Source: Panacagrimonas sp. | Lineage (GTDB): Bacteria > Pseudomonadota > Gammaproteobacteria > Nevskiales > Nevskiaceae | NCBI GenBank assembly: GCA_052387695.1 | Contig: JBQTIX010000044.1 | Location: forward strand, 54,620-118,619 | Direction of reading: 5' to 3' | DNA: 64,000 nt | Part shown: piece by piece, positions 1 to 64,000 of the stretch | Numbering within the stretch: the first letter of the stretch is position 1 | Layout: the number at the start of each line of letters is the position of its first letter | Position numbers and translations under genes: made by a program | The notes under the pieces: model-generated | The model's database searches: none | The model's input: only the letters and a program-made list of their open reading frames with translations | Told to the model about the DNA's origin: nothing

Positions 1-246
1 TGACCCAGGCATACGCCGAGGATCGGGAATTTGCCCTGTAACTGCGCGATCAGGTCCAGGCACACGCCGGCCTCGTTGGGCGTGCACGGTCCCGGGGAGA
101 GCACGATGTGGCTGGGCTTGCGTGCCGCCACCTCGTCCACCGTGATCTGGTCGTTGCGATGCACCTCGACCTCCGCCCCCAGCTCTCCGAGGTACTGCAC
201 GAGGTTGTAGGTGAAAGAATCGTAGTTATCGATCATGAGGATCATA
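1..246 (-). CDS. Glutamine amidotransferase, anthranilate synthase / aminodeoxychorismate synthase component II (TrpG/PabA family). N-terminal 82 aa lie in the window; the gene continues past the window start.
   Basis: Reverse translation of 1-246 gives [81 protein letters not shown], near-identical in pattern to E. coli PabA/TrpG N-terminus (class I GATase, GVCLG catalytic Cys). Confidence 0.85.
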
Positions 247-526
247 TTGGCGCCTAGAGCTTTGAATATATTGATTTGTACCCGCCGTTATCTGGGTCGG
301 ATACGCCCTTCGATACCCCCACGCTACTTCATCGCAGAGGGCAGTTGCTCAAGGGTGAGTCGCCAGCGATTCATGTCGAAAAAGGCCGAAACGTAAAGAC
401 CCCGTCATGTTACCCGTGGCTTCGGCGATGCGATACGACTGCGCAACACGGCCCTGCATCGGGCGGGCGCTTGGAATGGTCCGTCTGAGTCGGCCCCGTT
501 CGGGCCTGCAAGGGGCCGCCCCATCC

Positions 527-1996: not shown

Positions 1997-4900
1997 ACGA
2001 CCAGCGTCCTGCTCCGGTGCACGTCCCCGGGCCCACTGCCTTGCGCGCGGTACTGGGCGGGGCATTTGCCAAGGGCATGGATTACGCGCGTCGCGGGCAG
2101 GTCCTGGGCGTGTGGTGGGAGACGCCCGCCGGACCCCTGGCGGCGCGTGTGCAGGGGACCGAGGACGAGCCCTACCAGTGCCGGATCACCTGGTCCGACC
2201 TGAAGGGGCGGCTGGAGGTGGAAGGTGAATGCAGTTGCCCGGTCGGATTCAACTGCAAGCACGTTGCAGCCGCGCTGATCCAGGCCAACATCCGGCCGCC
2301 ATCGGACCACCCGCCGGACGAGGCGGAGGTGCCGCCGCCGGTGCTGTCGATGCACGCGCCCGACCAGAGGATGGAGCCGGATTGGCAGCGACAGGTTCGT
2401 CAGCCCTTTCCCGGCGCGCCGCCGCGCGCCAGCCGCAGCCCGTTCGAACGGTGGAGGGATGCGCTCAAGTCCGCGGTCGAGCCGGGAAGATCGGCTGCGC
2501 CGCCACCGGATGTGCCGGAACGGTTGCTGTACCTGTTGTCGCCCGACCCCGACGTCCCGGTGCCGCGCGGGGTGCAGGTGCAGCCGGTGGTGGCGCGAGC
2601 GCTCAAGGGGGGCGGCTTCAGCACGCCCAAGCCGCTGAACAACGGTCCCGAAAGTCAGGCGCGCTACGTGACGGACGGGGATCGGCGTCTGCTGTCCCTG
2701 ATGCGGGCGCAGCAGTCGCCTGGCGCCGGATTTCGCGTCGAGCAGGACTGGGGCGTGGAGTTGTTGCGCAAACTGCTCGACAGCGGGCGTTGCCACTGGC
2801 TCGATGTGAACACCCCCGCGCTCAGGTCCGGACCGGAACGCCGCGGACAATTCATGTGGGACCTGGGCGCCGACGCGCACAGCCGGCCGCGGCTCGACGT
2901 GCCGAATTCGGCCGCGGTACTGCCGCTTGCGCCGCCCTGGTATGTCGATACGCGCGCGCAGCTCGCCGGTCCCGTCGAGACTGGACTACCGCCGGGAGTC
3001 TGCTGCCAGTTGTTGCTGGCGCCGCCGCTGGCGCCCGCCGATGCAACGCAACTGCTGGCCGATTGGGGAGCGGCGCTGGGTGAGTGGTCGCAGGCCGTGC
3101 CGGCCCCGCCGCAACCGCGGATCGACCGGCGCAAGGGAATCAAGCCGGTGCCGGTGTTCGAACTCTCGCGCACCTTGCTGCGCCGGTACTACGGGCCGGA
3201 AGAATGGTTCGACGTGGGACGGCTGAGTTTCGACTACGACGGCGTGCGCGCCCCGCCCGGCGGCGCCGACCAGGCCCTGATGCAGGTCGATGGCGATCGC
3301 GTGATCGAGATCACGCGATCGCCGGACCGCGAGAACAAGGCCAGTCAGAACCTGCGCTCGATCGGAATTCTTCCGATGCAGGACGACTACGGCCGGCCGA
3401 TGCCCTACTGGGTGCCCAATCCCACCGTCGGCCGCGCCGGATGGATCGACTTTCTCGCCGTGCAGGCGCCGAAGCTGCGTGAGAAGGGCTGGCGCATCGA
3501 GGTCGCGGAGGATTTCCCCTGGCGCCTGCATGAGCCGGATGACATCTGGGACGCAGACATCGAGGAGGGTCGTGACTGGTTTGACCTAGCGCTCGACGTG
3601 ATGGTCGATGGGACGCGCACGAAGCTGCTGCCCTTGCTGGTGGCGCTGCTCCACCAGACCTCGGACCGGCTCGACCTGCCCAGGCTCAAGGCCCTGTCCG
3701 ACGACGCTCCGGTCGTGATCCGCGACGAACACGGCCGCCTGATCCGCCTGCCCGCGGGGCGCATCAAGCCGATCCTCGGCACCCTGCTGGAGCTGTACGA
3801 CGAGCGACCGCTCAGCGCCGACGGCCGCCTGCGCCTGCCGCGCAACGCCGGCATGCTGCTCGACGGTCTGGGCGAACACCTGCGTTACTCCGGCGGCGGG
3901 ACCGTGCGCGAACTGGCGGAGCGGCTGCGCGGCGTCTCCGGCCTGGACCCGGTGGAGCCGCCCGCCGGTCTCCAGGGCGAACTGCGTGATTACCAGCGTC
4001 ACGGCCTGTCCTGGTTGCAGTTCCTGCGGCGCATGGACCTGGCCGGGGTGCTGGCCGACGACATGGGCCTGGGCAAGACCGTGCAGACCCTCGCGCACGT
4101 TCTGCTCGAAAAAGAACAAGGCCGGCTGGATCGGCCGGCGCTGGTGATCGCCCCGACCAGCCTGATGTTCAACTGGCGCCGCGAGGCCGGACGCTTTGCC
4201 CCCGCGCTGCGCGTGCTGGTGCTGCATGGGCTGGATCGCCGACGGGATTTCGAGCGCATCACCGAACACGATCTGGTGCTGAGCACCTATCCACTGCTGG
4301 CGCGCGACATCGAGGTACTGAAGGCGCAGCCCTGGCATCTGCTCGTGCTCGACGAGGCGCAGAACATCAAGAACGCCAAGTCCAAATCGGCACAACTGGT
4401 GGCGCAACTCGACACGCGGCATCGGCTGGCGCTCACCGGCACGCCGCTGGAGAATCATCTCGGCGAACTGTGGTCGCTGTTCCATTTCCTGATGCCGGGT
4501 TATCTGGCCGACGAGCGCGCGTTCCGCCGCCGCTTCCGCACGCCGATCGAGAAACACGGCGACGCCGAAGTCCGCACGCAACTCGCTCGCAGGATCGCGC
4601 CTTTTCTGCTGCGCCGGACCAAGCAGGAAGTCGCCTCGGAACTGCCGCCGCGCACCGAGATCATCCGCAGCGTCGCGCTCGAAGGCGCCCAGCGCGATCT
4701 GTACGAAACCGTGCGCGCAGCGATGCAGGAAAAGGTGCGGCGCGAGATCGAACAGCGCGGCCTGGCGCGTTCACAGATCGTCGTGCTCGATGCCCTGCTG
4801 AAACTGCGCCAGATCTGTTGCGATCCGCGTCTGCTGAAAATGGAATCGGCCAGGTCCGTGCGCGAATCGGCCAAGCTGGATTTGCTGATGAACCTGCTGC

Positions 4901-54212: not shown

Positions 54213-54289
54213 GCGCCTGTAGCTCAGCTGGATAGAGTACTGCCCTCCGAAGGCAGTGGTCGGACGTTCGAATCGTCTCAGGCGCACCA
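54213..54289 (+). tRNA. tRNA-Arg (anticodon CCG)
   Basis: GCGCCTGTAGCTCAGCTGGATAGAGTACTGCCCTCCGAAGGCAGTGGTCGGACGTTCGAATCGTCTCAGGCGCACCA: canonical cloverleaf, 7-bp acceptor stem, encoded CCA. Confidence 0.9.
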
Positions 54290-54565: not shown

Positions 54566-55222
54566 TCACACGACCGGGAACGCGATGCCGCCGTAGTCGA
54601 CCTCCGGGTGTTCGAGCATTAGCTCAAGGGTGATGGGCACCAGGTCGCCGAGCAGGGATGCTCCATCGCCGACCTGCTGCCGATTGACGCGCCCGTTCCA
54701 GGTCGCGCCCCCGTGGACCAGCTGATTGCGCAGGACGTATAGCCGGTCGAATACGATCCCCAGTACCACCAGCGTGTCCTGGCCCATGACCGAGCGCAGC
54801 GCAGCCTTCTGGCCGGCGGTGAACTGCTGCTTCCAGGCATCGCTGCTGTCGTGCTCGCGCAGCGCGCGCCAGAAAGGTTCGAAGACGAACCGATTGTCGA
54901 TGAGCACGCGCACCGGCCCGGTGAACTTCTCGAAGATCAGCCGGTGCAGCCGCTGCTCCGAATCCACGGAGAGCAGCCGCGCCAAGAACTGCCTCAGCAG
55001 TTCGCGTTCCGTCTGCTCGAATCCAAACGCTTGCGCATAGGCGGCGTTGAAGGCGATCCACAGGAAGATGAACCTTGCGTCGAGGTCCTCCGCTTCGGCC
55101 TCGGCGCGACGCAGCCAGGAGACGGCGCGATGGATACGAATGCGCGTGTCCTGGTCGTAGCTCGCCTCGCGATCCTTGAGTTTCGCCTTCAGCGCATCGG
55201 CCTGTGCTTGCATTGCGGACAT
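54566..55222 (-). CDS. HEPN-like protein (putative RNase / abortive-infection-type toxin), 218 aa
   Basis: C-terminal LYVLRNQLVHGGATW contains the HEPN Rx4-6H motif in its common RNxxxHG form; otherwise all-alpha composition. Family not assignable from sequence alone. Confidence 0.5.
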   Translation of the reverse strand: MSAMQAQADALKAKLKDREASYDQDTRIRIHRAVSWLRRAEAEAEDLDARFIFLWIAFNAAYAQAFGFEQTERELLRQFLARLLSVDSEQRLHRLIFEKFTGPVRVLIDNRFVFEPFWRALREHDSSDAWKQQFTAGQKAALRSVMGQDTLVVLGIVFDRLYVLRNQLVHGGATWNGRVNRQQVGDGASLLGDLVPITLELMLEHPEVDYGGIAFPVV

Positions 55223-55435: not shown

Positions 55436-56737
55436 ATGTGGGTGAACTTAGCCGAGCAAAAGAAGAACTTTGTGACAGAACAACTGTTGGCGGCCTATAA
55501 GAAACCTGTGCCGGCGATCGCGGAAATAGCGGGTTTTGAACTGTCGGTCGACGAGGAAAGATTTCCGGCGGTCGTGCAGGAAACCTCCTATCGGGCGTTC
55601 GCCCCGGCGAACGTCGGTGTCCACCTTCCGCGGTTTCAGGCGCTGGCCGAACGTTTGGCGTCTGAGCGCCCAGCCGCCGTTCGGGCGCTGATCGAGGAGG
55701 AAATCGAATGGGCCGCCGGCATCGAATCTGGATTTGTCCCCGAACTCCGCCCCCGCTCGCTGCGGCGATATCGCGCCGCCTTATCGGTCCTAGTCGACCT
55801 GCTGGGCCAGAACTGGGTCTATCGATTCCGTGATCACCAACTGGAGATGGCGCCTCCCGACTTCACCGAGGCATCCAGTTCGCCAGAAGGTGTCGCGAAG
55901 CAGAAGCGGCAAATCAGGCTGGCAATGAAGACGGAGAGGCTGGCGCAACTGCAGCCCGAATCTGTTCGTCGATTCATTTTTGAAATGGAGGCCTCCAGAT
56001 CCCACCACGGGAAGCCCGAATGCTCAATCCTGGACTTGGTCGCCGACGGCAGCGCCTTGATCGACGACCTGACCGCCGCCAAGGCCGCTCTGGATGCTGG
56101 CAACGCAGAGCCGTTTCTAAACGTCGTTCAGCCCTATCTTCAGCTCGCGCAAGAGGATGATCGCTGCCCCGAGACCGGCCTGCGTCTGATCGATATTTGG
56201 CGTTATTTCCGCTATTTCTGGTCGCTGCCGTACTTCAGCACGCCAGGCCGAAACCTGTTCTATCTGGTCCGAGATCGGGCCCGCCCATTTCACCCTATCA
56301 TCGGCATCGCAGCTCTCGGCAACTTGATCGTACGTTTAGCAGATCGGGAGCGATTCCTGGGTTGGGACGTGGAGGGCATCCAGGCGTCTGTCGACGCCGC
56401 CCCTGATCCAGCCGAGCGGCAGACGCTTTTGGAACATCTGTATCGGCACTACTTGCGACAACTCGAAGTCGATATTGCCTCGCTGGACCCCAAGGGGATT
56501 GTGACGGCGGCCGAACTTGCGGCACCGACCATGGATCTTGTCCAGCGGCTCCTGTCAGATGCCCGCGAGAGTGCTTACCGAAGCGTCCGACGTACGTCGT
56601 CGGTCGTCGGTCGTCATAGCCTCTGGGGCTGTGTCGCGACCGATGACGCAAAGGCAGACGTCCTCGTCATCGGCGGCCGCACGTGCTTGGGCAAGCGAGA
56701 GGCGAATTGGCGTACCTTCGGTTCCGGCTTGGTATGA
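55436..56737 (+). CDS. Hypothetical protein (433 aa); central region RLIDIWRYFRYFWSLPYFSTPGRNLFYLVRDRARPFHPIIGIAALGN. Possibly DUF4338-like, but this is a recollection, not a verified match.
   Basis: Divergent from the HEPN-like gene. C-terminal ~60 codons overlap the convergent gene 56555-58216, so the true 3' end or frame is uncertain. Confidence 0.45.
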   Translation: MWVNLAEQKKNFVTEQLLAAYKKPVPAIAEIAGFELSVDEERFPAVVQETSYRAFAPANVGVHLPRFQALAERLASERPAAVRALIEEEIEWAAGIESGFVPELRPRSLRRYRAALSVLVDLLGQNWVYRFRDHQLEMAPPDFTEASSSPEGVAKQKRQIRLAMKTERLAQLQPESVRRFIFEMEASRSHHGKPECSILDLVADGSALIDDLTAAKAALDAGNAEPFLNVVQPYLQLAQEDDRCPETGLRLIDIWRYFRYFWSLPYFSTPGRNLFYLVRDRARPFHPIIGIAALGNLIVRLADRERFLGWDVEGIQASVDAAPDPAERQTLLEHLYRHYLRQLEVDIASLDPKGIVTAAELAAPTMDLVQRLLSDARESAYRSVRRTSSVVGRHSLWGCVATDDAKADVLVIGGRTCLGKREANWRTFGSGLV

Positions 56738-59193: not shown

Positions 59194-59224
59194 AGACACC
59201 GCGGGCCTGAGCCCGCGGTGTCTC
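59194..59224 (-). terminator. Perfect 14-bp-stem hairpin GAGACACCGCGGGC-ctga-GCCCGCGGTGTCTC overlapping the rtcB stop codon (terminator-like; no U-run)
   Basis: Read directly. Confidence 0.4.
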
Positions 59225-60398
59225 ATCCCTTCACGCACATCACCTGCTTGAGCGTATGCACGACCTCCACGAGGTCGGACTGGTTGGCCATCACGGCGTC
59301 GATGTCCTTGTAGGCCCCGGGGATCTCGTCCAGCACCCCGCCGTCCTTGCGGCACTCCACGCCCTCCGTCTGGCGCTTCAGGTCCTCCACCGTGAAGTGG
59401 CGGTTGGCCTCGTTGCGCGACATCTTGCGACCCGCGCCGTGGGCACACGAGCACAGCGATTCCGGATCGCCCTTGCCGCGCACGATGTAGCTGCGCGCAC
59501 CCATGCTGCCCGGAATGATGCCGAGGTCGCCCGCGCCGGCACGGATTGCACCCTTGCGGGTCACCCACACGTCCGCGCCGTAGTGATGCTCGCGCGCCAC
59601 ATAATTGTGGTGGCAGTTGATCGCCTCCTGCGTCGGCGTGAACGGCGGCAGGTGACGCGCCAGTGCCGTGAGCACCAGCGTCATCATCGCGCGACGGTTC
59701 TCCATGGCGTAGTCCTGCGCCCAGCCCACGGCTTCCAGGTAGTCGTCGAACAGCTCGCTGCCCTCCACGAGGTAGGCGAGGTCCCGATCCGGGAGCTGGA
59801 TTAAGTGCCGCTCCATCTCCTTGCGCGCCGACTCGATGAAGAACTGCCCGATGCGGTTGCCGATGCCGCGCGAACCCGAGTGCAGCATCACCCACACGTC
59901 GTCGTTCTCATCGAGACACAGCTCGATGAAGTGATTCCCGCCGCCAAGCGATCCCATCTGCCCCTGCCAGTCGGCCTTGAGCTTGGGGTACTTTGCCTGG
60001 ATGGTCTCGAGGCCCGGCGCGATGCGCTCCAGCGCATCAACCTGCCAGCGGGCATCCTTGTGCGCGCCCATGCCCACCGGCACATCGCGCTCGATCTGGG
60101 AACGAATCGTCTTGAGGCTGTCCGGCAGCGCCGAGGCCTTCAGCGACAGGCGTACCGCATTCATGCCGCAGCCGATGTCCACTCCGACCGCGGCCGGGAT
60201 GATCGCGCCCTTCGTGGGGATCACGGAGCCCACGGTTGCGCCGATACCCAGATGCACATCGGGCATGGCCGCCACATGGTGGTGAATGAACGGCAGGCTC
60301 GCGATGTTCGCAAGCTGCGCCTGCGCGTTGTCGGCGATATCGTCGGTGTAGATCTTCACGGGCACCTTGCCCTGTGACAGAACCTTTCGGATTGGCAT
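59223..60398 (-). CDS. rtcB: RNA-splicing ligase RtcB (3'-phosphate/5'-OH RNA ligase)
   Basis: 391 aa with RtcB hallmarks: metal/GMP-binding His/Cys/Asp residues (…DIGCGMNAV…, GGGNHFIEL, MLHSGSRGIGN, HNYV…, CSCAHGAGR). Confidence 0.9.
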   Translation of the reverse strand: MPIRKVLSQGKVPVKIYTDDIADNAQAQLANIASLPFIHHHVAAMPDVHLGIGATVGSVIPTKGAIIPAAVGVDIGCGMNAVRLSLKASALPDSLKTIRSQIERDVPVGMGAHKDARWQVDALERIAPGLETIQAKYPKLKADWQGQMGSLGGGNHFIELCLDENDDVWVMLHSGSRGIGNRIGQFFIESARKEMERHLIQLPDRDLAYLVEGSELFDDYLEAVGWAQDYAMENRRAMMTLVLTALARHLPPFTPTQEAINCHHNYVAREHHYGADVWVTRKGAIRAGAGDLGIIPGSMGARSYIVRGKGDPESLCSCAHGAGRKMSRNEANRHFTVEDLKRQTEGVECRKDGGVLDEIPGAYKDIDAVMANQSDLVEVVHTLKQVMCVKG

Positions 60399-61932: not shown

Positions 61933-62005
61933 CGAAGTGGAGCGGGAGTCGAACCCGCGACAGGCGCATTACGAATACGCTGCTCTACCCTCTGAGCTAT
62001 CCAGT
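61933..62005 (-). tRNA. tRNA-Thr(CGT)-like gene, probably a degenerate or remnant copy
   Basis: Minus strand reads CACTGGA-TA-GCTCAGAGGGTAGAGC-A-GCGTATTCGTAATGCGC-CTGTC-GCGGGTTCGACTCCCGC-TCCACTT-C. D, anticodon (CGT) and T arms are canonical, but the acceptor stem has 2 mismatches and no CCA. Confidence 0.45.
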
Positions 62006-62218
62006 GGTGAAAGGGCATCAGCCCTTCCGAGGCATCGGCCGTCGTGCGTCCACGGCATACGCACCGGCAATGCCGGGCGCACCGGACGGGTGGGACATCT
62101 CCCGAACCCGCGCCGCTGTGAACCGCCGTACAGATCGATGCCGATTGGCGTCTCGTGGGAAACGCCAATTCATGGGGCGGGCTGCGACATCAACTCCGCC
62201 GAATCTCGAACTCCTTCG

Positions 62219-62317
62219 CGAACGGAAAACAAAACGCCCCGGGAGGCAGGCCTTCCGGGGCGTTCGCGAATCTATCGGAAGGTCGGAGTACCGACCTTCC
62301 TGTTTGTCGTCAGGTCA
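62219..62317. terminator. Back-to-back terminator hairpins: CGCCCCGGgaggcaggccttCCGGGGCG with AAAACAAAA upstream (intrinsic terminator for the minus strand), and GGAAGGTCGGagtaCCGACCTTCC followed by TGTTTGT (plus strand)
   Basis: Read directly; GC-rich stems with flanking T/A-runs. Confidence 0.5.
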
Positions 62318-62597
62318 GGTCAGTCGATGGCAAGCATCGGCTACATTCGTCGGCAGGCTGGGCGCCCGCAAGCCGAACGACGCCGTGTCCAGGCATTCAT
62401 GCCCGGATGTGCGTGATGGTTGATGGGTGGACCTGAGAATCATCGAAGGTTGATTGGAAAAACTGCACCGACCGGTGCGAAGGGCGCGCACTCTACGCTC
62501 GGTGATTGTGAGATTCAACAAAGATTCCAAATAAATTGTGCAAGCGATCACGAACGTCCGGATTGCGCTTTGTGTTTTCGTTGCATCATTTCAGCGC

Positions 62598-62627
62598 TTG
62601 ATTTCGTTACTGTAGCACGCTACAGTA
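62598..62627 (+). promoter_or_regulatory. Sigma70-like promoter (TTGATT -35, 17-bp spacer, TACAGT -10) overlapped by a near-consensus LexA SOS box TACTGTAGCACGCTACAGTA (62608-62627)
   Basis: The box matches the E. coli-type consensus TACTGTA-N6-TACAGTA (CTGT-N8-ACAG) at all conserved positions and is embedded in the spacer/-10, the classic SOS promoter layout. Sits in a locally low-GC region. Confidence 0.6.
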
Positions 62628-62631
62628 ACGA

Positions 62632-62919
62632 CGCTGAACATCAAGGTCGAAAGACCGCTTTCACAGGATCACGAATTTCAATGTCACGCCATTCCACCCC
62701 ATCGCTTCAAGCGACGACCCGAGAAATCGGGACGGGTGGACTGTGCCCGTGGCATTCCTATTTGTTTGCGGACTTTGGTCTGCCCACGAATAAGGATTGT
62801 CTGCACATGCGGTAACCGCGACTCCACACCTTCGGGTGGCAGGTCGCAAACCTGCCAACCAGAACTGGTGAAGAGGGATTCCAGAATCACGGAACCCCCG
62901 GCAGGCCGAAAGGTTTGCC
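62632..62919 (+). ncRNA. Predicted SOS-inducible ~290-nt transcript (putative sRNA or small-protein mRNA). Contains hairpins and one 44-codon ORF (62681-62815, MSRHSTPSLQATTREIGTGGLCPWHSYLFADFGLPTNKDCLHMR). Ends in a strong intrinsic terminator CCCCCGGCA…TGCCGGGGG-TTTTT (62885-62919).
   Basis: Defined only by promoter/LexA box upstream and terminator downstream. No homology claimed. Confidence 0.35.
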
Positions 62920-63410
62920 GGGGGTTTTTCGTTGTCCCCGCGCAGAGATTGTCGGAGAGATCGAACGTGGGCCGGAGAAGTTCGGCGCCGCGCTGCTCTC
63001 TCCGGATCGATGCGAATCCCAATGAACCGGTGGACCAGCCGCCACCGGAATGCTCTCTAACAATCTGGACTGTCGTAAGCGGTGGGTCCCAGCGCGGGAC
63101 TGACTCAATGTCAGTCCCGCGTAAACCCACCGCGGCGCATGCCGGGCCTCAATGGACGAAGAACGCTCGACGGCATGGGAAGCCGTGTGCTCGGGCGGAT
63201 GAATGCCCGCGCCCGGATGCCTCCGGCGCGCGGCTGATGATCGTGCGGGCGCCCGGTGCCCGACTTCTACATGAAGCCATCGAAACTCAATCACCCGGGC
63301 GTGAGGTCGCGACCACCAGACGACCGGGACGCCACGGGGGTAGGACCGTGGACGGGGTGGGCGCGCGTGCCTCGTTGTTCGAGCTGCAGCGCTTGATGCA
63401 CTTCAGCAAC

Positions 63411-63484
63411 GCAAGGCTGGCCTAGCGGTCGGGCTCCTGCCTTCCAAGCAGACGAGACGGGTTCGACTCCCGTGCCTTGCTCCA
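63411..63484 (+). tRNA. tRNA-Gly (anticodon TCC)
   Basis: GCAAGGC…CTGCcttCCAaGCAG…ACGGGTTCGACTCCCGTGCCTTGCTCCA; anticodon loop CTTCCAA with U33/A37; discriminator U + CCA. Confidence 0.8.
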
Positions 63485-63488
63485 ATTC

Positions 63489-63576
63489 GGATGGTTCGCA
63501 TAGCGGCCATTGCACCTGGCTGTAAACCAGGCGACCCCTCGGGTCTTCCAAGGTTCGAGTCCTTGACCATCCACCA
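63489..63576 (+). tRNA. tRNA-Tyr (anticodon GTA), long variable arm
   Basis: GGATGGT…CTGGCTGTAAACCAG + extra arm GCGACCCCTCGGGTC + T-arm GGTTCGAGTCC + CCATCCACCA. Confidence 0.85.
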
Positions 63577-63605
63577 GTACGCGTTCTTCAGTATTCAATT
63601 TTTAT

Positions 63606-63681
63606 GGTGGCCGTAGCTCAACGGCAGAGCCCCTGGTTGTGAGCCAGGAGGTCGCGGGGTCAGCACCCGTCGGTCACCCCA
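63606..63681 (+). tRNA. tRNA-His (anticodon GTG) with G-1 / C73
   Basis: G-GTGGCCG-TA-GCTCAACGGCAGAGC-C-CCTGGTTGTGAGCCAGG…CGGTCAC-C-CCA. The extra 5' G pairing with discriminator C is the His identity element. T-loop reads GTCAGCA (non-canonical), so confidence is reduced. Confidence 0.7.
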
Positions 63682-63686
63682 ACATC

Positions 63687-63829
63687 GGGTCGTTCGTCCA
63701 AGGGCAGGACCCCGGACTCTTTGATTCGGCGAAGCCGGATCAAAGCAAAACCGTGCTCTGTGTTGTTGAAGCGGCTGCACCGCTTCAACAATGCGGCCGA
63801 TCTCGGTTCAAGTCCGAGGCGACCCACCA
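63687..63829 (+). ncRNA. 143-nt tRNA-like gene with a ~72-nt insertion in the variable region: canonical acceptor stem (GGGTCGT/GCGACCC), D-arm, T-arm (CTCGGTTCAAGTCCGAG) and CCA, but an 8-nt anticodon-like loop
   Basis: Read directly. The extra region contains perfect hairpins (CTTTGAT…ATCAAAG; TTGTTGAAGCGGctgcaCCGCTTCAACAA). Position inside a tRNA operon. Confidence 0.45.
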
Positions 63830-63832
63830 AAT

Positions 63833-63917
63833 GCCGACGTGGTGAAACGGAATACACGCGACGCTCAGAACGTCGTGCCCTCAGGGCTTGCGAGTTCAAG
63901 TCTCGCCGTCGGTACCA
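63833..63917 (+). tRNA. tRNA-Leu (anticodon CAG), long variable arm
   Basis: GCCGACG…CGACGctCAGaaCGTCG + extra arm TGCCCTCAGGGCTTG + T-arm GCGAGTTCAAGTCTCGC + CGTCGGTACCA. Confidence 0.85.
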
Positions 63918-63922
63918 ACTCC

Positions 63923-64000
63923 ACCCCCGTAGCTCAGCGGAACCAGAGCGTCCGCTTACGAAGCGGAAAGTCGGAGGTTCAAATCCTCCCGGGGGTACCA
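63923..64000 (+). tRNA. tRNA-Arg (anticodon ACG)
   Basis: ACCCCCG-TA-GCTCAGCGGAACCAGAGC-G-TCCGCTTACGAAGCGGA-AAGTC-GGAGGTTCAAATCCTCC-CGGGGGT-A-CCA. Confidence 0.85.

Follow-up and report, generated by a model that had tools for sequence, protein, structure and literature searches.

What does a LexA-like box control when the promoter around it leads to no annotated gene? The question is raised by 64,000 nucleotides of Panacagrimonas sp. DNA (hereafter the window: positions 54,620 to 118,619 of contig JBQTIX010000044.1, assembly GCA_052387695.1), near the end of which a first-pass annotation had flagged a unit of about 300 nt with a promoter, a small open reading frame (ORF) and a terminator, and had proposed an orphan locus for a small RNA (sRNA), a small protein or a type-I toxin-antitoxin-like system. 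Comparison with related loci gives a different answer: the unit heads a conserved operon module of tRNA genes, and its link to the array that starts at 63411 had been missed. From these sequence comparisons, we consider that the unit probably controls a long tRNA array (L-array) operon that has spread by horizontal transfer, through an operator-controlled promoter, a leader attenuator and an rrn-type antitermination element.

Association of the unit with tRNA arrays

The unit was found in ten Nevskiales-like lineages (the window, L001, L083, L084, L081, L085, L091, L092, L096 and L099; L094 and L095, near-copies of L092, were not counted separately), which were gathered from slipin homologues, two peptide clusters, one metagenome scan and homologues of the HNH endonuclease encoded just after the array. 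The slipin protein encoded beside the unit in the window shares 97% identity with its counterpart in a Panacagrimonas metagenome-assembled genome (order Nevskiales, Gammaproteobacteria). In all eight lineages with long enough contigs, an array starting with tRNA-Gly(UCC) lies about 480 nt downstream, with 33 called tRNA genes in L085, 32 in L081, 12 in L084 and 2 in L083; the criterion for an L-array was at least 20 tRNA genes at a density of at least 2 per kb. The window holds six tRNA genes and one interrupted gene in the 590 nt before its end, in the order Gly(UCC), Tyr(GUA), His(GUG), interrupted Lys(UUU)-like, Leu(CAG) and Arg(ACG), and the relatives with 12 to 33 tRNA genes have the same gene order. 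All 20 amino acids are covered by the complete arrays of L085 and L081.

Wherever contigs extend past the last tRNA gene, an HNH endonuclease gene comes directly after the array; this is so in L081, L083, L084, L092, L096 and L099, as well as in a 77-kb phage contig (L105; IMGVR_UViG_3300047160_007019) that combines a 33-tRNA array with the HNH gene and a homologous leader. A standalone HNH homologue in Flagellatimonas is accompanied by neither an array nor the palindrome described below, and the HNH gene alone is therefore not diagnostic of the module. A gene for RtcB, located at 59223-60398 in the window, also adjoins the modules of several relatives.

The genes upstream of the unit differ, with at least five contexts: a TPR protein in L081, a protease and an AAA ATPase in L085, the end of an unrelated gene in L091, a peptidase M3 in L099 and the tRNA-Thr region in the group of the window. 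The corresponding site of L002, a relative within Panacagrimonas, lacks the module. Because the array follows, the upstream contexts vary and the L002 site is empty, the unit is the head of a mobile module and not an orphan locus, and the module is horizontally transferred and supernumerary. Among the examined loci, the unit was never found apart from an array. The leader family looks rare, since a metagenome scan with the pattern of its 3' domain added one locus (L091); searches of phage and plasmid DNA with the unit or the array returned only single-tRNA matches, and pattern scans of IMG/VR with motifs of the unit and spacer returned no match.

Layout of the unit

Several parts of the first-pass description held on closer analysis. 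The sigma-70-type promoter (hereafter P1) is present with its 17-nt spacing, overlapped by the palindrome and conserved; the 44-codon non-hydrophobic ORF is likewise a conserved small ORF, and the interval is locally AT-rich as claimed, with a GC fraction of 0.58 compared with about 0.64 for the window. P1 matches the promoter consensus at 8 of 12 positions and was not called by a promoter scan. The RNA from 62632 to 62930 folds far more stably than its shuffles (z = -6.35). A search of Rfam 15 with 62040-63410 and with L085, at permissive thresholds, gave nothing at gathering score; the sub-threshold matches (CopA, rdlD, His_leader and NsiR1) were driven by the terminator, and His_leader reached 18-21 bits against a threshold of 49. 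Two minus-strand ORFs over the unit (148 and 65 aa) were taken as spurious long ORFs typical of GC-rich DNA. The coordinates of the features are collected in Table 1.

Table 1. Positions, within the window, of the features of the unit, the array leader and the array.
Feature	Position	Strand	Basis
P1 -35 hexamer TTGATT	62598-62603	+	sequence
Operator palindrome TACTGTAGCACGCTACAGTA, 20 bp	62608-62627	n/a	sequence
P1 -10 hexamer TACAGT, within the palindrome	62621-62626	+	sequence
Variable 5' untranslated region (UTR), with Shine-Dalgarno-like AGGA at 62665-62668	62633-62680	+	alignment
Leader ORF, 44 codons, MSRHSTPSLQATTREIGTGGLCPWHSYLFADFGLPTNKDCLHMR then stop	62681-62815 (ATG 62681-62683, TAA 62813-62815)	+	alignment
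Putative attenuator domain	62816-62929	+	alignment, folding
R1, GCGAC	62818-62822	+	alignment
R2, GGCAGG	62838-62843	+	alignment
GUCGC, partner of R1	62843-62847	+	alignment
R3, CCUGCC	62851-62856	+	alignment
GGGAUUCC, pairing with GGAACCC at 62891-62897	62875-62882	+	alignment
R4, GGCAGG	62900-62905	+	alignment
Conserved structured spacer (array leader)	62930-63410	+	alignment, folding
boxB-like hairpin CCGGTGG-N8-CCACCGG	63027-63048	+	covariation
rrn-type boxA TGCTCTCTAACAA	63051-63063	+	motif scan
Start of the tRNA array	63411-64000, continuing past the window end	+	tRNA calls

A leader ORF conserved in frame and stop

The leader ORF is intact in all ten lineages, with 44, 46 or 49 codons, an invariant ATG and indels of 6 and 15 nt, all of them multiples of 3. 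Its stop codon (TAA, replaced by TAG in L096 and TGA in L099) occupies a single alignment column, always 1-2 nt before GCGAC. Across the deepest split, the ratio of non-synonymous to synonymous change (pN/pS) is about 0.45 in the ORF frame, compared with 0.7-2.2 in the other frames. In the phage contig, the leader is an unrelated ORF of 37 codons whose stop stands at the same place. The peptide itself is not kept to the same degree: only ten residues are invariant, identity falls to 45-52% in the most divergent lineages (L096 and L099), and the differences among close relatives are mostly non-synonymous. The ORF also contains conserved RNA hairpins whose compensatory substitutions change the peptide; the change from CCCGA-GAAA-UCGGG to CCCGG-AAAG-CCGGG, for example, turns REIG into RKAG. 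Because the frame and the position of the stop are kept and the peptide is not, this appears to be a regulatory leader ORF rather than a gene for a functional protein or toxin; what seems to be conserved is that it is translated and where translation ends, which is the signature of such leaders.

The peptide had no match in Pfam or NCBIfam, and a profile search with it recovered two peptide clusters only. There is no run of regulatory codons for any single amino acid. The 44 residues instead include 19 of the 20 amino-acid kinds, a mildly unusual composition (P ~0.04) that is a hint rather than evidence.

These properties also bear on whether the unit might be an SOS-controlled small-toxin locus, of the type-I toxin-antitoxin-like kind that had been suggested or of another. 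With its LexA-like box ahead of a highly structured mRNA that contains a short ORF, the unit does resemble tisB/istR and dinQ/agrB, but the peptide has no hydrophobic helix, draws on nearly every kind of amino acid and lacks a confident fold (AlphaFold pLDDT 50.6), and neither the non-synonymous differences among close relatives nor the unrelated phage peptide would be expected of a toxin. The Rfam matches to CopA and rdlD lie far under threshold. No antisense partner was evident, although no search aimed at one was made. We disfavour a toxin locus and regard it as very improbable.

Two mutually exclusive folds behind the stop codon

The best-conserved part of the unit is the domain that follows the ORF (62816-62929), which can adopt two mutually exclusive folds. 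The intrinsic terminator claimed by the first-pass annotation is real, but its stem is not of 9 bp: the arms CCCCCGGCAGGCC (62895-62907) and GGTTTGCCGGGGG (62912-62924) form a G+C-rich stem of 13 bp with a GAAA loop, followed by a T-run at 62925-62929, and pairing between GGAA and UUUU lengthens the stem to 17 bp, so that the whole terminator spans 62891-62929. A simple terminator scan did not call it, probably because of this extension. In the terminator form, R2 pairs with R3 and the terminator forms; 99.4% of cells in the alignment are paired, compared with 33-60% when the partners are slid. In the antiterminator form, R1 pairs with GUCGC, R3 with R4 and GGGAUUCC with GGAACCC, which together occupy the whole 5' arm of the terminator, and 95.9% of cells are paired, compared with 27-49% with slid 3' partners.

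Both folds leave traces in the alignment. The variable base of R3 covaries with R2 as well as with R4, and the terminator stem shows the substitution series C-G, U-G and U-A. In the nine lineages and the phage that were compared, ten sequences in total, the R3:R4 helix is perfectly Watson-Crick, whereas R2:R3 is mismatched in the phage. When the nascent RNA was ended after R4, the minimum-energy fold was the antiterminator in each of the seven chromosomal lineages tested; the alternative was 0.1-0.9 kcal/mol away in five of them, and the gap in favour of the antiterminator was a clear 5.7 kcal/mol in L084 and 3.0 kcal/mol in L096. When pairing was forbidden over the 13 nt past the stop, as a modelled ribosome footprint, the fold flipped to R2:R3 in six of eight sequences. 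Since the stop of the ORF is conserved beside GCGAC, and masking of the stop region switches between two conserved folds, the unit is probably a leader-peptide attenuator, as far as folding models can indicate.

The array leader and the source of transcription

The spacer of about 480 nt between terminator and array is itself conserved and structured (z = -4.47). It contains TGCTCTCTAACAA, which agrees at 12 of 13 bases with the boxA of E. coli rrn operons, UGCUCUUUAACAA (PMC2724277; PMC2176067), is the only such match in the window (0.05 expected) and is conserved in all lineages. The hairpin that precedes it has undergone compensatory G-C to A-U changes, which arose independently in L001 and L096. 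Inspection by eye and a scan of four lineages revealed no convincing sigma-70-like promoter between the terminator and the first tRNA gene, and P1 is therefore the sole recognisable promoter. In L099, the last conserved block comes to within about 26 nt of tRNA-Gly.

The array leader of the window also carries a perfect-hairpin insert of 48 nt (63078-63125; GGGTCCCAGCGCGGGACTGAC...GTCAGTCCCGCG...), found in none of the nine other lineages, which looks like a small insertion of the repetitive extragenic palindromic (REP) or miniature inverted-repeat transposable element (MITE) kind. It falls within the minus-strand ORF of 148 aa.

The unit could alternatively be a classical SOS gene, in which host LexA acts on the palindrome and DNA damage induces a self-contained transcript of about 300 nt, encoding a small protein or acting as an sRNA, while the array is transcribed separately. 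The strength of the terminator would suit such a gene, as would the 3' domain, whose conservation exceeds that of the ORF and which might act as a functional RNA. However, the unit's constant company with the array is difficult to reconcile with an independent gene, the array has no recognisable promoter of its own, and a boxA downstream of the unit implies transcription from upstream. The phage version, moreover, keeps the position of the stop and not the peptide.

The operator and its candidate binders

The palindrome over P1 had been read as a near-consensus LexA box. That reading stands for its outer 7+7 bases, which equal the consensus, and fails for its core, which is GC-rich and gives a low score on an E. 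coli-type matrix. A bare CTGT-N8-ACAG occurs once in the 64-kb window, with 0.55 matches expected, and is not significant alone; the longer TACTGTA-N6-TACAGTA, with at most one mismatch, also occurs once, and in none of 100 shuffles. Among the relatives, 18 of the 20 positions are invariant, (T/A/C/G)ACTGTAGC-NN-GCTACAGT(A/T/C), with variation limited to the two central bases and the outermost base and with an invariant core, AGC-NN-GCT.

This palindrome is retained in ten lineages although the flanking sequence diverges: homology among the relatives starts at the -35 hexamer, and in the 5' UTR only a purine-rich stretch and an ACG.ATT.CA run before the ATG are conserved between clades. The arrangement TTGxxx-17-TACAGT persists in every lineage despite a 12-nt indel that replaces the -35 (L091 versus L081); the hexamer in the relatives is TTGCTT, TTGCAT or TTGCAA, always 17 nt from TACAGT. 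The phage promoter (TTGCAA, 17 nt, TAGGCT) lacks the palindrome, as the phage contig does its second copy, and holds a different one, CGCTGCG-C-CGCAGCG, in the same spacer.

The genus itself uses E. coli-type LexA boxes, because L002 has TACTGTATATCCATACAGT about 20 nt upstream of the start codon of lexA, whose product shares 59% identity with E. coli LexA; this is the sole such motif in the lexA locus (0.01 expected). The presence of this canonical CTGT-N8-ACAG box in a congener leaves the LexA claim unrefuted on the point of motif type. The central bases of LexA sites are AT-rich and variable. Scored against a symmetrised matrix built from 21 E. coli sites, the module boxes reach 4.7-7.1 bits, compared with 12.9 for the weakest of the 21 sites and 25.1 for the L002 lexA box. 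A search of the literature on tRNA arrays in connection with LexA or SOS found nothing relevant. On this sequence evidence, LexA might or might not bind the palindrome, with equal plausibility, and its binding would be compatible with that of a second protein. As for the classical SOS gene, the 14 consensus positions and the box type of the genus's own lexA favour it, and the invariant GC core, a matrix score under every real site and the different palindrome of the phage homologue do not; with the points raised above, we regard it as unlikely.

The second candidate is encoded by the module. In every relative that reaches beyond the HNH gene, a near-identical copy of the palindrome directly follows the HNH stop codon. 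This copy spans the 17 nt between the hexamers of a near-consensus promoter (CTGACA-17-TACAAT) and is followed, after about 4-10 nt, by the start codon of a conserved ORF encoding 107-123 residues. For the protein of about 108 residues encoded there, AlphaFold predicts five helices with pLDDT ~90 over residues 9-85, and nearly all of the top 50 Foldseek matches are helix-turn-helix (HTH) proteins of the XRE type. No significant match was obtained in Pfam, NCBIfam, PDB-sequence or hhalign profile-profile searches. Mobile-element autorepressors are typically arranged in this way: a small gene for an HTH protein carries an inverted repeat within its promoter, and the repeat recurs at the promoter of a target. 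The predicted HTH protein is thus an equally good candidate binder as LexA, and is somewhat more likely than not to bind the palindrome, without precluding LexA.

Taken further, the palindrome could be simply the operator of this HTH autorepressor, of the Aca or C-protein type, its LexA likeness being either a coincidence or a mimicry that adds SOS control. Should the repressor be labile, failing translation would deplete it and so derepress P1; a labile repressor has been proposed for the Anabaena array (PMC8421152). The shared operator in the HTH gene's own promoter, the predicted fold, the conservation of a GC core that is absent from LexA sites, and a phage that lacks this gene along with both palindromes would all be consistent with this explanation. 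It has to contend with the lack of significant sequence similarity to HTH proteins in the searches above, with a chance identity of 7+7 bases to the LexA consensus that is a priori very unlikely, and with a gene that lies outside the window. We consider it a real possibility, somewhat short of probable.

Proposed operation of the module

In the explanation that we favour, the control region of an L-array operon, the operon would consist of P1 with its operator, the leader ORF and attenuator, a leader with boxB and boxA, up to about 33 tRNA genes and the HNH gene. A repressor on the 20-bp palindrome would cover the -10 hexamer of P1 and keep the operon silent. Once transcription is allowed, a ribosome arriving promptly at the stop would mask R1 and let R2 pair with R3, which would leave the terminator's 5' arm free and end transcription at 62929, with an RNA of about 300 nt as the product. 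Slow or stalled translation would instead permit R1:R2, R3:R4 and GGGAUUCC:GGAACCC, sequestering the 5' arm and leading to read-through. Because there are five pairing segments, read-through would also be the default without a ribosome. Judging from its motif, boxA would then recruit Nus factors, so that the long untranslated array could be transcribed without premature termination. The net effect would be that spare tRNAs are made only if the repressor is released and translation capacity is failing.

Several observations weigh against parts of this explanation. The modelled ribosome mask leaves the fold unflipped in L096 and in the phage, and the hairpin of GGGAUUCC with GGAACCC loses one pair, uncompensated, in one clade. 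Most of the domain is invariant and thus uninformative, and the covariation comes down to a very small number of independent events, in essence two sequence states and the phage. The full 17-bp terminator is far stabler than the R3:R4 helix of 6-7 bp, and antitermination would therefore have to be kinetic. The Shine-Dalgarno-like element lies far from the start codon (10-12 nt). A weak or non-sigma-70 promoter could be present in the spacer, in which case the unit would be an independent gene merely travelling with the array. Finally, because the array runs off the end of the window, only the relatives show the HNH gene, the HTH gene and the second copy of the operator.

A more specific version, which we put forward only tentatively, is that the leader is a general translation-capacity attenuator: by sampling nearly all amino acids it would respond to translation as a whole, timely arrival at the stop beside R1 would silence the back-up tRNAs, and the operator would read the SOS signal in addition. 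If so, tRNA shortage or a slowing of ribosomes, as caused by anticodon nucleases, antibiotics or phage attack, would switch on a spare tRNA operon, and DNA damage, translation stress and tRNA supply would be linked. Long tRNA arrays are widespread, horizontally transferred and usually silent; to our knowledge, the Anabaena array is the only one studied functionally, and its repressor and its means of sensing stress are not known. The leader could thus supply the missing sensing mechanism for cryptic L-arrays. Under the proposed model, cells or phages would deploy spare tRNAs only when translation is failing, which would be relevant to defence against toxins that cleave tRNAs as well as to counter-defence by phages. 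The locus provides a concrete control architecture for a proteobacterial and phage lineage of tRNA arrays.

Other features of the module and its surroundings

In the interrupted tRNA-Lys(UUU)-like gene of the window (63684-63830, plus strand), the acceptor, D and T arms are unchanged and about 70 nt, which fold into two long hairpins, are inserted behind the anticodon stem; the anticodon loop also differs (CUCUUUGA). At that array position, L001, L081, L084 and L085 have an ordinary tRNA-Lys(UUU) of 75-76 nt. In L091 (~85-290, minus strand), which belongs to another clade, the homologous insertion measures about 130 nt and shares its ends with that of the window. Neither ARAGORN nor Rfam called the interrupted gene, which could be a tRNA with a mini-intron-like element or a disabled tRNA. 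The gene for RtcB, an RNA ligase, lies 3 kb away. In the phage array, the last tRNA (L105, 5869-5944) has a CUA anticodon, is labelled 'Pyl' by ARAGORN and is a potential amber suppressor; the same contig has Acb2/Tad1-like and BubE genes.

The neighbours of the module are rich in genes for translation and RNA repair. They include an elongation factor G-like GTPase (668 aa), a NADAR protein and the RNA 2'-phosphotransferase Tpt1/KptA in L092 (10593-17216), an RNase T-like exonuclease in L096 (9123-9719), and slipin, RtcB and the nucleotidyltransferase RlaP in L099 (11776-15041). Several loci also have ubiquitin-like Bub systems, Fic and HEPN genes at their flanks, which marks the setting as a defence or repair island. 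The ORFs of L106 and other module-adjacent ORFs had no Pfam match, and exact-sequence look-ups of the window's slipin and RtcB proteins returned no record.

The tRNA-Thr upstream of the unit, which the first-pass annotation had called a remnant, is a full-length tRNA-Thr(CGU) gene (61934-62006, minus strand) conserved in many related genomes, and its position beside slipin (SPFH) and RtcB is conserved in many genomes of Xanthomonadales and Nevskiales. The adjacent non-coding DNA (62040-62500) has 66-76% identity to dozens of Xanthomonadales and Nevskiales loci upstream of slipin-RtcB and contains a two-way hairpin terminator at 62235-62260. It matches no Rfam family, apart from a weak YrlA (Y-RNA-like) match at 61951-62056 (E = 0.23), and may be an unrecognised non-coding RNA or an RtcB-associated tRNA leader. 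In L002, which has no array, the distance between the lexA gene (2806-3440) and the slipin/tRNA-Thr locus is only about 2.6 kb, which puts lexA close to the place where the module is inserted in the lineage of the window.

Further upstream, tRNA-Arg(CCG) at 54213-54289 is followed by an ORF of 218 aa without a family match (54566-55222, minus strand) and by one of 433 aa (55436-56737) with a weak match to DruA of Druantia. These ORFs fit the earlier idea of an island between tRNA-Arg and tRNA-Thr.

Comparison with known systems

The comparators for the array were the L-arrays (2021, PMC8421152) and the tRNA array units of Tran et al. 2016 (PMC4758250). Known L-arrays have up to 43 tRNA genes, have spread horizontally and have HNH endonuclease and rtcB genes as conserved neighbours in cyanobacteria, where they are cryptic until translational stress induces them; the Anabaena array is silent until translation is impaired, with operator-like repeats over its -10 hexamer and transcription start and a hypothesised labile repressor (PMC8421152). 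The module shares with them dozens of tightly packed tRNA genes (in the complete arrays of L085 and L081), mobility, the HNH and rtcB genes and a sigma-70-type promoter with an operator over the -10. It differs in that its operator is a 20-bp LexA-like palindrome instead of 9-nt direct repeats, its HNH gene lies downstream of the array instead of upstream, and its hosts are Nevskiales-like Gammaproteobacteria, with a phage relative. It also has a leader ORF with attenuator and an rrn boxA, whereas a term search of PMC8421152 found leader, attenuator and terminator unmentioned.

In the leader-peptide attenuators of trp, his, leu, thr and pheA, the position of the ribosome selects the fold. The module resembles them in its short ORF, its alternative hairpins and a terminator before the regulated genes. 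Its ORF has no run of regulatory codons and includes 19-20 amino-acid kinds, however, and the decisive point would be the stop codon beside R1, with five pairing segments and with tRNAs as the regulated genes. The rrn antitermination leader (boxB-boxA, with NusB, NusE, NusA, NusG and SuhB) similarly places a hairpin and then boxA before a long untranslated RNA operon, whereas the boxA of the module would serve an array of tRNAs only, stands about 420 nt from the sole recognisable promoter and past a terminator, and is absent from the phage version.

The outer TACTGTA...TACAGTA of the operator is identical to that of gammaproteobacterial LexA boxes (consensus TACTGTATATATATACAGTA), which the operator also resembles in overlapping a promoter -10. 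Its six central bases are GC-rich and invariant, in contrast to the AT-rich and variable centre of LexA sites, and two copies share one core within a single mobile module. Aca proteins and the C proteins of restriction-modification systems are comparable to the module's protein in size (about 100 residues), in predicted XRE-like fold and in having one repeat in their own promoter and a second at the target. The module's predicted DNA-binding protein differs from them in lacking detectable sequence homology, and its putative operator mimics a LexA box. With a LexA-like operator that has a non-LexA core, and with a private HTH protein, the module is also a test case for operator mimicry.

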